This document shows positions 58,307 through 64,000 of a stretch of 64,000 nt of DNA, piece after piece. The stretch lies in IMG/VR virus record IMGVR_UViG_2924769383_000001, positions 2,059 to 66,058 of that record. One strand, 5' to 3'. A program made the translations under genes and the position numbers. The notes below the pieces were generated by a model. It made no database searches. It was not told where the DNA came from and saw nothing but the letters and a program-made list of their open reading frames with translations. Each line of letters starts with the position of its first letter. Positions within the stretch are counted from its first letter, which is position 1. The stretch is from a virus (lineage: Duplodnaviria > Caudoviricetes).

Positions 58307-58698
58307 TGGACAATCCAATGTGGACGCCATGGGGCAATACCGAGGACGCATTTGAGGTGCCCCCTGCGGCCAACGATAGCTTCTGTGACCGCGTGCTTAC
58401 CGTTGACACCGACGTCAAGGCGGCGATTGCCGACGATGCCAAGCGTATCGTGTCAGGTGCTCGGCGCGCCGCCTACGGCAAGCCGGAAGACAACTTTGAG
58501 CGGATTGCCAAGTTCTGGCAGGCGTTCTTTGAGAATACCGGTAGGCCGGAGGCCAATGTTACTGCGGCCGATGTGTCGCCGCTGATGCGCCTGATGAAGG
58601 AGGCTCGGCTCTGCGAGACGCCAGACCATCGCGATAGCTTCGTAGATCTGGTGGGCTATGCACTGACCGGCGCCGAGATCAATAAGGTTGCCGCATGA
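58303..58698 (+). CDS. DUF6378-like protein
   Basis: RRAAYGKPEDNFERIAKFW, MRLMKEAR, DSFVDLVGY. Confidence 0.8.
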   Translation: MMDNPMWTPWGNTEDAFEVPPAANDSFCDRVLTVDTDVKAAIADDAKRIVSGARRAAYGKPEDNFERIAKFWQAFFENTGRPEANVTAADVSPLMRLMKEARLCETPDHRDSFVDLVGYALTGAEINKVAA

Positions 58699-59429
58699 CG
58701 CTTCCGCTGCCCAAACTTCTTGAAAGGTTCTTCGTCAGTTTCACCGTTGACGAGGAGACCGGATGCTGGAACTGGACCGGAGAAGTTAAGCCCAACGGAT
58801 ATGGCGTCATTTCAAAGAAGGTCAAAGGCAAGCGACATCGGTTCTACGCGCATAGGTTTTCCGCAGAACACGTTGCTGGTAAAGATGTGCCTGCTGACAT
58901 GGACGCTTGTCATGAGTGCGACAATCGCAGATGCGTCAATCCAGACCATCTATTTGTAGGCACAAGAAAGAAGAACATGGAGGATTGCGTCGCTAAAGGC
59001 AGGCAGGCTAAAGGCGATATGCTTCCTCAAACAGTTCTGACTGAGGAGCAAGTTCAGTCCATCCGGGCTGACGACCGCGACTACGAGACGATTGCTGACG
59101 CATTCGGAGTTGGATGCTCCAGCGTAAGCAACATCAAGAACCTGAAGGAATGGTCATGGCTACCGGTGGCTTGTCATATTGCCAAGTGCGAGACTGGCGA
59201 TCGTATAGCAGGCGAGGCGCATTATTGCGCCAAGCTAACAGAGGAAAAGGTGGCTCACATTAGAACTTCAGATGAACCGCTTGCCGCCTTGGCTGTTCGA
59301 TATGGGGTCTCCTACAACACAGTTCTTTCAGCATTGACTGGAAAGACATGGAGGAGGGTTACTGTGGCTGCTAACGACAATCGCCTCAAGGCTAGCAAGG
59401 TTGACGAAGCGCTGGTGAGGTGGGGATAA
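58695..59429 (+). CDS. HNH endonuclease with duplicated C-terminal HTH modules
   Basis: GCWNWTG..NGYG, HECDNRRCVNPDHLFVGT..NMED. Confidence 0.92.
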   Translation: MTLPLPKLLERFFVSFTVDEETGCWNWTGEVKPNGYGVISKKVKGKRHRFYAHRFSAEHVAGKDVPADMDACHECDNRRCVNPDHLFVGTRKKNMEDCVAKGRQAKGDMLPQTVLTEEQVQSIRADDRDYETIADAFGVGCSSVSNIKNLKEWSWLPVACHIAKCETGDRIAGEAHYCAKLTEEKVAHIRTSDEPLAALAVRYGVSYNTVLSALTGKTWRRVTVAANDNRLKASKVDEALVRWG

Positions 59430-59494
59430 AAGAAATAGTAGCCAGACAACAGATTTTGGTGTATTGCTGTTCCGTTTATCAAATGAGGGGCAAT

Positions 59495-59647
59495 ATGCGA
59501 TACATCTTTACTGTTGCCACAAGTCTCGTTCTGGTCCTTGGGTTTTTTGAGGACGCATACGCCAGCTGCGGCTATAAAAGCGATGGTCAATACCATTGTG
59601 GAGAAAACTGTGGCTACAAGAGCGATGGGCAGTACCACTGCGAATGA
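59495..59647 (+). CDS. Secreted 50-aa peptide with two CGYKSDGQYHC repeats
   Basis: SD GAGGGG; signal peptide ending AYA; repeats 59567-59599 and 59609-59641. Confidence 0.8.
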   Translation: MRYIFTVATSLVLVLGFFEDAYASCGYKSDGQYHCGENCGYKSDGQYHCE

Positions 59648-59653
59648 GTAATT

Positions 59654-59681
59654 AAAAGGGCGCCTTTATGGCGCCCTTTTC
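59654..59681. terminator. Bidirectional intrinsic terminator
   Basis: AAAAGGGCGCC-TTTAT-GGCGCCCTTTT between convergent genes. Confidence 0.9.
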
Positions 59682-59683
59682 TG

Positions 59684-60091
59684 TCAAGCCACACCAGCCT
59701 TCCGCGCAGCCTTAGACGGCACATACTCGCCGGTCTTCGGATCTTTGCGACGCCGGAACCTCTTCTCGCCCTTCGGCGCAGCGGCACGCGGCACCAAGCT
59801 CTCGGCGGTAGGCGCCCGCAAAATCATGCCTGGCACAAACATGCCGTCGCCGCGGCTAAAGCCCTGCGCTACGCGCTCGGGCAGCAGACCGTTGTCGTGA
59901 AGCCACTTGATGTCGGCCACGACTCGTTCCACGCGGGTAGCGGCCTCTGCGGCAAGCTCTTCCTTGGCAGCGATATCGGCGCGGCGCTTCTTTTCCGCCA
60001 TAGCCATGGCGATCTCATTAGCCAGACGCTCGAGTTCTGCATCGGACTTGTCAAGAAGTTCAGGGCGGAGTTTATCAATCGTAGCGGCCAT
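59684..60091 (-). CDS. Coiled-coil, basic-tailed protein, possibly H-NS-like
   Basis: N-terminal amphipathic helices (SDAELERLANEI...KKRR), basic C-terminal RRRKDPKTGEY. Confidence 0.55.
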   Translation of the reverse strand: MAATIDKLRPELLDKSDAELERLANEIAMAMAEKKRRADIAAKEELAAEAATRVERVVADIKWLHDNGLLPERVAQGFSRGDGMFVPGMILRAPTAESLVPRAAAPKGEKRFRRRKDPKTGEYVPSKAARKAGVA

Positions 60092-61082: not shown

Positions 61083-61189
61083 GCGGGCATGCTAGCACCT
61101 ATGGGATATTATTCCTAGTATGAGATTTATCTAAATTGCGACGGAACGGAATCGTGCCCAAGGATTTGAGTCGCGTTCGTTGGAGTTCG

Positions 61190-61904
61190 CGTATGCACAG
61201 AGTACCCGCCAAAGACCGGCTGAAGTTCATTCCTCCGCAATTGCCGCGGCTGGTGGAAGAGCCTCCCAAAAGTGACGACTGGATCCACGAAATCAAATAC
61301 GACGGCTACCGTACACAGGTCATCATCGATTGGGACGGCGCCCGCGCTTACACCAAGACCGGAATTGACTGGACATCGCGCTACTGGCCGATTGTAGCCG
61401 CGGCAGAGGAGCTTGGTGCGCGGTCAGCGATAATCGACGGCGAAGTCATTGCGCCGACGTCAAGCGGCGCTCCTGACTTCCACGCGCTGCGATCGGCGAT
61501 GACTTGGAATGCGGAGCGTCTGGCGTTCGTCGCGTTCGACCTGCATGGTGTCGAAGCGCCGCGGCGCGGCATACCGGAGCGGCGAGTCCGACGCTTGGCT
61601 GAAGATCAAGTGCTACGAGTTTTCCGAAATGGACCTGCTAGGCGTGAAGCGCGAGCCAGGGAAGCCTGCCATGGCACTCATGGGGCAGGACGGAAAGTAT
61701 GCCGGCTCGGCTTTTCTAACGCTGCCGAAAGATATCCGCGAGCGCCTGTGGAGGCGCGTCCAGGCTGGCAGAGAGGCTCCTGCGGGTGTGCCTGCCACAA
61801 AGGGTGTCGAGTGGCTGAAGCCGGGGATACGGGCGCGCGTGAAGCACCTGCGCGGCGAGGCTAAGTTGCGGCATGCGTCCGTGAAGGGGATTGTGGAGGA
61901 TTAG
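61190..61904 (+). pseudogene. ligD: LigD-type ATP-dependent DNA ligase, internally deleted and frameshifted
   Basis: HEIKYDGYR, IDGEV, AFDL in one frame; MVSKRR..YRSG..WLKIKC and OB domain in another; junction CTGCATG near 61541-61547. Confidence 0.8.
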
Positions 61905-63951: not shown

Positions 63952-63999
63952 CCCTTGGTAAGGGAGAGGTCGAGAGTTCAATCCTCTCTCGCAGCACCA
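63952..63999 (+). mobile_element. att core: 3' half of tRNA-Thr(GGT)
   Basis: CCCTTGGTAAGGG-AGAGGTC-GAGAG-TTCAATC-CTCTC-TCGCAGC-ACCA; 5' acceptor strand and D-arm absent upstream. Confidence 0.9.
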
Positions 64000-64000
64000 G

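Follow-up and report, generated by a model that had tools for sequence, protein, structure and literature searches.

A small gene in a 16-3-like prophage encodes a putative exported peptide of two cysteine repeats from an undescribed family

The 64,000-nucleotide (nt) window analyzed here, which comprises bases 2059-66058 of the 66,058-bp IMG/VR record IMGVR_UViG_2924769383_000001, carries at 59495-59647 on the plus strand a gene for a 50-residue pre-peptide, P0001, that consists of an apparent export signal and two identical 11-residue cysteine repeats. We consider it probable, while far from certain, that the product is an exported peptide of two disulfide-closed hairpins that belongs to an undescribed family, is carried by the phage as cargo, and acts as a stand-alone binding module in the cell envelope. 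Prophage cargo encoding a small exported protein is a known kind of gene; the family and its tandem disulfide-hairpin design appear to be new with respect to the resources searched.

The coding sequence, established by direct reading and by comparison with homologs, begins with an ATG at 59495 and ends with a TGA stop codon at 59645-59647; all features of the gene given below lie on the plus strand. A Shine-Dalgarno (SD) sequence, GAGGGG, is located at 59485-59490, 4 nt 5' of this ATG. The mechanical open reading frame (ORF) call opens 75 nt upstream, at a GTG at 59420, and overlaps the end of the preceding HNH endonuclease gene, in agreement with a preliminary description of the locus that judged the called start to be too early. 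We favor the ATG at 59495 on account of where the SD sequence lies and because, in most relatives, the first cysteine comes after 22-35 residues. An in-frame ATG at 59483 constitutes a minor alternative start, which would add four residues and leave the mature product unchanged.

Residues 1-23 (59495-59563) are predicted, from inspection, hydropathy and comparison with the family, to form a Sec-type signal peptide. They have the n-h-c layout, i.e., M-R, a 16-residue hydrophobic stretch with a mean Kyte-Doolittle value of 2.17, and E-D-A-Y-A, and a putative signal peptidase I site lies between A-Y-A and S24, so that, by inspection, the n-region, h-region and cleavage site of a Sec and signal peptidase I substrate are all present. 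A lipoprotein reading was rejected: no lipobox is present, the residue at -3 is Y with E/D upstream, and D or E occupies -1 in the majority of relatives. The predicted mature peptide (59564-59644) has 27 residues and, by computation, a monoisotopic mass of 3013.08 Da with two disulfides and 3017.11 Da when reduced, an isoelectric point of 5.4, and a net charge of approximately -2.4. Its order is a serine, unit 1 (CGYKSDGQYHC, 59567-59599), the linker G-E-N (59600-59608; family consensus G-x-[N/D]), unit 2 (59609-59641), in which all 11 residues are the same as in unit 1, and a final glutamate. The arrangement claimed earlier, a signal peptide followed by a two-repeat cysteine peptide, is thus how the sequence reads.

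The gene is followed by an intrinsic terminator at 59654-59680, identified by folding, in which a perfect 11-bp stem (59654-59664 paired with 59670-59680) encloses a 5-nt loop, with an A-run in one arm and a T-run in the other. Its predicted folding free energy is -20.5 kcal/mol (z = -4.6), and none of 200 shuffled sequences folded equally well. As it lies between the peptide gene and a convergent ORF (59684-60091, minus strand), it would be able to serve both strands, bearing out the proposal that the gene has its own SD sequence and a bidirectional terminator. The spacer of 65 nt between the HNH stop codon and the peptide start (59430-59494) was scanned for promoters and terminators, and no terminator that would divide the peptide gene from the upstream operon was found within it.

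Searches for homologs and for variation in repeat number, which had been recommended for this gene, yielded 47 proteins with 160 units after redundancy was removed. We defined the family by an N-terminal export signal followed by at least two units of the form C-G-[YIF]-K-x-D-G-x-[YF]-H-C joined by G-x-[ND]; P0001 aligns with its relatives over its full length, and both of its units match this consensus everywhere. A word-indexed search recovered nine relatives of similar length at E values from 1e-10 to 1e-19, plus longer forms, while a profile search against 1.8 billion cluster representatives gave 33 matches at E values up to 1e-3, approximately 25 of which clearly contain the same unit. 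Scans placed members at 20 metagenome loci and in two bacterial genomes, those of a Nitrospirota metagenome-assembled genome (MAG) and Methylovulum psychrotolerans Sph1. Hosts of the family belong to several phyla and range from 36 to 63% in guanine-plus-cytosine (GC) content, with a near-invariant peptide throughout, and the repeat gene was present in only one of 201 genomes of the Methylovulum order.

Across the 160 units, nine of the 11 positions are conserved at 87% or more; the values by position are C1 (100%), G2 (94%), Y3 (87%), K4 (95%), S/A5 (90%), D6 (97.5%), G7 (97%), Y/F9 (98%), H10 (91%), and C11 (100%), with position 8 variable (K/N/Q). The linker is similarly constrained, its glycine being invariant and its third residue N or D in 95% of cases, with a variable residue between them. 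No homolog lacking the cysteine pair was found; two cysteines with C-x9-C spacing are present in 160 of 160 units. Members contain 2, 3, 5, or 6 units, the six-unit forms being two triplets separated by a Pro-rich linker, and 43 of the 44 complete members have a hydrophobic N-terminal segment ahead of the first unit. Two fusions were identified: P0028 is lipoprotein-like and has an unknown domain of approximately 130 residues followed by a C-terminal two-unit module that ends like the phage peptide, and P0015 has a long N-terminal part with one membrane helix and then five units that have Q or L in place of His. These fusions suggest that the module is extracytoplasmic and usable as an appended domain.

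Known families gave no credible assignment. Searches of Pfam, NCBIfam, and PHROGs with the phage peptide returned no credible family, the Pfam rows DUF7070 and NOG1 being rejected as far under the cut-off and located over the signal peptide. Eleven members with five or six repeats produced only noise in Pfam and NCBIfam (Vanabin-2 at E 0.89; low-complexity ClfA/ClfB matches). A sequence-profile search of the PDB gave no match at E up to 10; the ESM Atlas yielded scores of at most 0.82 for unnamed clusters and no usable named match; and the unit motif strings were absent from a full-text literature search. With tblastn, nothing better than an E value of approximately 4 was obtained from 50,697 phage records, and nothing at all from 72,556 plasmids. 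From the sequence comparisons, then, the family is real, rare, patchily distributed, bacterial, and undescribed in any resource searched.

Comparison of the two units at the nucleotide level confirmed that the 33-nt repeats of P0001 differ at seven positions, all of which are third codon positions and all synonymous. Since only 15 of the 99 single-base changes possible in one unit are synonymous, the chance of seven silent changes out of seven is approximately 1.8e-6. Seven of the 11 codons differ between the units, against an estimate of about six of 11 for full synonymous saturation, and the units did not arise by recent duplication. When P0001 was compared with three two-repeat relatives over the 27-codon mature part, 10-13 codons differed synonymously and there were three amino-acid differences, located at the residue before the first Cys, at unit position 2 or 8, and at the middle linker residue; the signal peptides of P0001 and its relatives have diverged freely. 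Between units within genes, pooled over the family, the proportion of synonymous differences (pS) was approximately 0.9 and that of nonsynonymous differences (pN) approximately 0.08. Together with the zero nonsynonymous and seven synonymous differences within the phage gene, these values support the earlier proposal that the exact peptide sequence is under strong purifying selection. Two relatives, L009 and L011, have units that are nearly identical at the DNA level, which fits recurrent duplication or homogenization of units as well and would be consistent with the varying copy number. A unit-by-unit orthology across relatives (unit 1 with unit 1, unit 2 with unit 2) was unsupported by the distance matrix. 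Likewise rejected was a 5' leader common to P0001 and relatives L005 and L006, which had been suggested by tblastn alignments extending upstream; the DNA alignment is unconserved before the SD sequence. A 108-residue antisense ORF over the peptide gene (59312-59638, minus strand) is regarded as an artefact of an open reverse frame because the unit-to-unit substitutions are silent only in the plus frame.

The record that carries the gene bears an IMG/VR flag for direct terminal repeats. These are two copies of a 49-bp sequence (genome bases 1-49; window positions 63952-64000) that corresponds to the 3' part of a tRNA, including the T-arm and the end GCACCAG; tRNA-Thr sequences of other phage records match the end of the window. 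As this tRNA portion is accompanied by a tyrosine integrase gene beside the left repeat (genome 157-1536, minus strand; L061), the repeats mark the attL and attR sites of an integrated prophage rather than packaging ends. One gene upstream of the peptide gene has 68-70% DNA identity to Rhizobium phages 16-3 and RHph_TM3_3_14B, and by these sequence comparisons the record is best read as an integrated 16-3-like prophage of a rhizobium-type bacterium.

Within this prophage, the peptide gene lies approximately 4.4 kb from attR, with genes for an HNH endonuclease and a DUF6378 protein and unknown ORFs as its neighbors. The upstream DUF6378 gene is common to 31 viral contigs and the downstream gene for a 135-residue protein to two, and the peptide gene itself is absent from all 33 related viral contigs. 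In five of them (L024, L025, L027, L055, and L056) the flanking genes are kept and the peptide gene is missing. When related phages are compared, the interval from the last rightward gene to the shared terminator (59430-59683) proves hypervariable. L024 is the closest relative, its flanking proteins having 83-87% amino-acid identity to those encoded here; a small unrelated ORF and a terminator lie between its DUF6378 gene and its convergent gene (L024:6411-6664). The slot is occupied by a tRNA-Gln in L027 (L027:6595-6668) and by a T-arm-like sequence that ARAGORN did not call as a tRNA in L055 (L055:4406-4535). A degenerate pattern for the canonical 33-nt unit, run against 2.9 million IMG/VR records, matched no further contig. 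The GC content of the peptide gene is 48.4% and that of the HNH gene 51.6%, compared with 57.3% for the genome. In addition, the HNH ORF (58695-59429, plus strand) ends in KVDEALVRWG, which are the last ten residues of a deoxynucleoside monophosphate (dNMP) kinase encoded in L055 and L056 at the position held here by the endonuclease, and the HNH endonuclease thus seems to have replaced the body of the dNMP kinase in frame.

Because it is absent from relatives, occupies a variable slot, and has a foreign base composition, we conclude that the peptide gene is, as far as the genomic comparison can tell, horizontally acquired cargo, captured from a bacterium into this hypervariable slot. Absence from close relatives at the locus, an own terminator, and a deviant base composition are the features by which such cargo genes (morons) are recognized, and the gene resembles lambda bor and lom in these respects, including a strong terminator and a predicted envelope product. 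It differs from them in that no promoter of its own was found, its product would be a soluble 27-residue peptide, and its family was unseen in the other phages searched.

Structure prediction was consistent with the hairpin that had been suggested for each repeat. An AlphaFold2 model of P0001, built on an alignment of 20 sequences, contained a helix over the signal peptide and strands at residues 25-27/33-35 and 39-41/47-49, so that C-G-Y pairs with Y-H-C in each unit (mean predicted local distance difference test score [pLDDT] 70); in a second model, of a six-unit member, an equal hairpin was present in all six units and the central linker was disordered (pLDDT 63). Because an odd number of residues separates the cysteines, we infer a three-residue S-D-G turn with the pairs C1:C11, G2:H10, Y3:Y9, and K4:x8, in which the disulfide and both tyrosines would lie on one face of the hairpin while the opposite face would carry G, K, x, and H. 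The two cysteines of each unit are predicted to stand opposite each other, and disulfides within units (Cys25-Cys35 and Cys39-Cys49) are likely. Of the earlier claim of disulfide-closed beta-hairpins, then, the spacing of the cysteines and the strands are borne out by the family and by both models, while the pairing is deduced and the models are of middling confidence.

Fold searches returned nothing above noise: the best Foldseek row against the PDB had an E value of 2.2 and was an epidermal growth factor (EGF) domain, the best against BFVD had an E value of 0.4, and a wide fold search (VIA) with the six-repeat model reached a best Z of 2.2. There is a likeness to the C-terminal hairpin of EGF-like domains and to the insect ENF peptides, whose pattern is C-x-x-G-Y ... 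D-G-x-C, in that a disulfide closes a hairpin with an early G-Y and a D-G or G turn; these, however, are eukaryotic, have other cysteine frameworks, and occur in single copy. The double C-x9-C of a short protein oxidized outside the cytoplasm is also reminiscent of the twin Cx9C proteins (CHCH, Cox17). CHCH motifs consist of two alpha-helices cross-linked C1-C4 and C2-C3, whereas the segments here are joined by only three residues and may occur three to six times, and a helical reading was rejected given the strands that AlphaFold2 placed in every unit and the G and D-G inside the units.

We examined the genes around relatives in 12 contexts and found no recurring neighbor and no adjoining receptor, immunity, transporter, or maturase gene. 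The contexts often contain mobile-element genes (integrase, Rep_trans, rve transposase, invertase, PIN, or HNH). For instance, L021 has a tyrosine integrase, Rep_trans, and a transposase; L005 has an invertase and, downstream, a weak Rap1a-like ORF (E 3.4e-5, below the Pfam cut-off); L014 encodes a PIN protein; and L017 encodes a UvrD-like helicase with DUF2290. In M. psychrotolerans (L003:5351-6288, plus strand), a six-repeat gene lies 42 nt after a gene for a YdjM-like membrane protein, and a divergent gene for a 762-residue multicopper oxidase is found approximately 1 kb away (L003:2598-4886, minus strand). The Nitrospirota copy (L002) has an OmpR-type two-component pair upstream and a SRAP peptidase gene downstream. 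In L008, a two-repeat member (L008:27-134, plus strand) is convergent with, and 4 nt from, a gene (L008:138-2321, minus strand) whose 727-residue product has phiKZ gp144-like lytic transglycosylase and M15C L-Ala-D-Glu peptidase domains. L008 is a metagenome contig of 63% GC and may be phage-derived. Overall, the distribution fits an accessory gene that is sufficient in itself and moves along with mobile DNA. Two further associations were rejected. Precursors of ribosomally synthesized and post-translationally modified peptides have a leader without a Sec signal and an adjacent radical-SAM or other maturase gene, and a reading of P0001 as such a precursor (SCIFF/ranthipeptide) was dismissed on its Sec-type signal and the lack of a maturase gene in the contexts examined. 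An ATP-dependent DNA ligase gene lies downstream of the peptide gene both here (61136-61904, plus strand) and in L018, yet it is also present in the peptide-less L024. This ligase gene looks truncated or frameshifted, as its 242-residue ORF matches only positions 19-99 of a 204-position profile and a second overlapping ORF follows; the L024 ligase likewise appears as two separate tblastn pieces.

The explanation that we favor begins with horizontal gain of the gene by the 16-3-like prophage, in the variable slot that closes a rightward operon, just ahead of the shared terminator. The product would be exported by Sec, cut after Ala23 by signal peptidase I, and oxidized in the periplasm to an acidic 27-residue mini-protein of two 11-residue hairpins, Cys25-Cys35 and Cys39-Cys49, joined by a tight G-x-N turn. 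In the cell envelope it would most likely act by itself as a multivalent binder, each hairpin presenting one face of paired tyrosines and the disulfide, as well as the tip K-[S/A]-D-G. Its target would be alike in very different bacteria. A multivalent binder of a universal envelope component is favored because the unit is near-invariant, no partner gene was found, copy number varies, and anchored fusions exist; the stand-alone role is suggested by the lack of a recurring neighbor and the patchy presence noted above for the Methylovulum order. As to the target, we can offer a guess. Within this model, a substrate-like inhibitor of an envelope-attacking enzyme (a Lys/Arg-specific protease or a peptidoglycan hydrolase) is the role to which we give most credence among those we can name, itself doubtful; glycan or peptidoglycan binding is somewhat more doubtful, metal binding more so again, and the remainder is left to something else.

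Several observations weigh against this explanation. A consensus scan detected no convincing sigma-70 promoter on the plus strand upstream of the peptide gene, where weak TTGACG-N18-GATAAA and TATCAA elements can be seen by eye only. The structural models are of moderate confidence only (pLDDT 63-70, predicted template modeling score [pTM] about 0.3), and the cysteines may instead be free thiols or pair otherwise, e.g., Cys35 with Cys39 across the C-x3-C turn. The near-total conservation of residues could stem from fold stability in a domain without a core rather than from a binding surface. The hints as to the target are thin, comprising the L008 hydrolase, the Rap1a-like ORF in L005, and the Methylovulum multicopper oxidase. 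Finally, known protease inhibitors tend to have variable reactive loops, while the hairpin loop here is invariant.

The alternative that survives best, which we nevertheless hold to be unlikely, is that the peptide is a periplasmic multi-headed inhibitor, with K at P1 and S/A at P1' directed to a Lys/Arg-specific serine protease, or with an Ivy-like loop directed to lysozymes or lytic transglycosylases, that would guard the wall of the lysogen from phage lysins, type VI secretion system (T6SS) effectors, and foreign enzymes. In its favor are the K or R at unit position 4 in 158 of the 160 units and the S, A, or G at position 5 in 152, the two, three, or six near-identical heads, a gene that is stand-alone and mobile with a product that would be extracytoplasmic, and two contexts: the L008 copy convergent with the lytic transglycosylase and M15C peptidase gene, and the L005 copy followed by the sub-threshold Rap1a-like ORF. 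Yet convergent neighbors are weak evidence, and only two of about 12 contexts agree. The sequence and fold comparisons matched no inhibitor family, the loop has 11 residues instead of nine and lacks a cis-proline, and reactive sites, which normally vary between paralogous heads, are invariant here.

The likeness that prompts this alternative is to the Bowman-Birk inhibitors and SFTI-1, whose loops are hairpins closed by a disulfide, K-S being found at the scissile bond; as in those small, secreted, multi-headed proteins, disulfide-closed hairpin loops stand in tandem with Lys-Ser near the tip. The Bowman-Birk loop, on the other hand, has nine residues (C-T-P1-S-x-P-P-x-C) with a cis-Pro on a seven-disulfide scaffold, whereas the loop here is an invariant 11 residues without Pro, the four cysteines contrast with a 14-Cys scaffold (PF00228), the origin is bacterial or phage, and no Pfam match was obtained at E up to 1-5. 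Ivy, an inhibitor of lysozyme and lytic transglycosylase, is a folded protein of approximately 130 residues with a single six-residue loop, CKPHDC. It is likewise periplasmic, stand-alone, and patchily distributed, and its disulfide-closed loop carries K, H, and D; searches for Ivy, MliC, or PliC (CKPHDC or SxSGAxY) gave no sequence match in Pfam or the PDB, and the fold searches, made with a small model of middling confidence, were empty. More speculatively still, the peptides could be a new class of miniature inhibitors in the periplasm whose hairpins plug the conserved active-site cleft of phage virion lysins, T6SS wall-degrading effectors, or trypsin-like proteases, providing both a host shield and superinfection exclusion at the stage of wall penetration; this would be a long shot.

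A module that binds glycan or peptidoglycan outright, the tyrosine pairs forming a flat aromatic strip that stacks on sugars as in hevein or CBM1 and gains avidity with more repeats, is in our estimation quite unlikely. Geometrically, C1:C11 pairing would place Y3 and Y9 on the disulfide face and give four aromatic rings in the two-repeat form; the repeat number ranges from two to six, and the unit occurs as a C-terminal appendage of lipoprotein-like and membrane-anchored proteins, as binding modules often do. Against this, no carbohydrate-binding family was matched, a free module without an enzyme or an anchor brings no obvious benefit, and the side-by-side packing of hairpins is unsupported by the model (pTM 0.27).

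Metal binding, one of the functions proposed in the preliminary description, gained no support here; in the form of periplasmic copper or zinc binding through His, Cys, Asp, and Tyr, with H-C-G-x-N-C as a Sco-like C-x3-C plus His site, we rate it as improbable. Each unit does offer two Cys, one His, two Tyr, and one Asp, and the Methylovulum copy near the multicopper oxidase gene and the Nitrospirota copy downstream of the two-component pair are suggestive. However, 9% of units have R, L, Q, K, W, or D in place of His, and some members, such as P0015 and P0011, have it replaced in every unit; the cysteines are always paired and are opposite each other in the model, as for disulfides in an oxidizing compartment; Met-rich motifs are absent; and metal genes are found in just one or two of about 12 contexts.

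That the peptide serves the phage specifically in superinfection exclusion, by masking the receptor of the phage, as was also proposed earlier, or by blocking DNA entry, has been weakened to the point of being very unlikely. Known exclusion factors are, like this gene, prophage cargo with their own terminator and a predicted envelope location. The gene is nevertheless missing from related phages (the 33 viral contigs above), and the family occurs mainly in unrelated bacteria of several phyla with a near-invariant peptide, which misfits a host-specific receptor.

The gene may, conversely, be a passenger, dead or simply unexpressed, that stems from a fragment captured recently and has no role in the phage; we give this only a slim chance. 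Such a reading accounts for a gene that is unique to this phage lineage, has no promoter of its own that could be found, and adjoins a homing-type HNH gene in a recombination-prone slot; moreover, selection at the level of the family is silent on selection after capture. The intact frame, good SD sequence, clean terminator, and zero nonsynonymous differences between units argue against it. Were the gene inert, the locus would still document a cargo slot of 16-3-like prophages in which tRNAs, small ORFs, and foreign genes are swapped.

The processed communication peptide resembling arbitrium that had been suggested earlier is disfavored and scarcely credible, as is the suggested antimicrobial peptide, taken here as Sec-dependent or bacteriocin-like: although P0001 has in common with AimP that a temperate phage encodes it as a short precursor bearing a signal peptide, no receptor (AimR-like or other), immunity, or transporter gene adjoins it here or in the relatives examined, no maturase gene lies beside the relatives, no processing sites separate the units, the peptide, with its net charge of about -2.4, is acidic and, at 3 kDa, would be unable to cross the outer membrane unaided, the host would be Gram-negative, the peptide would be a structured disulfide peptide and not a hexapeptide, fused and anchored forms exist, the family is found outside phages, and no other IMG/VR virus has the canonical unit.

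If the peptide of the favored explanation, an exported two-hairpin envelope binder, is made, few structured exported products known for phages with Gram-negative hosts would be smaller, and it would provide a first handle on an undescribed tandem disulfide-hairpin family from bacteria of soil, peat, and freshwater. With only 27 residues, it is cheap to synthesize, and a compact, repeatable, disulfide-locked hairpin could serve as a scaffold for peptide engineering. For the biology of the family, the near-invariance of the unit across hosts of 36-63% GC implies a target that would be common to very different bacteria.

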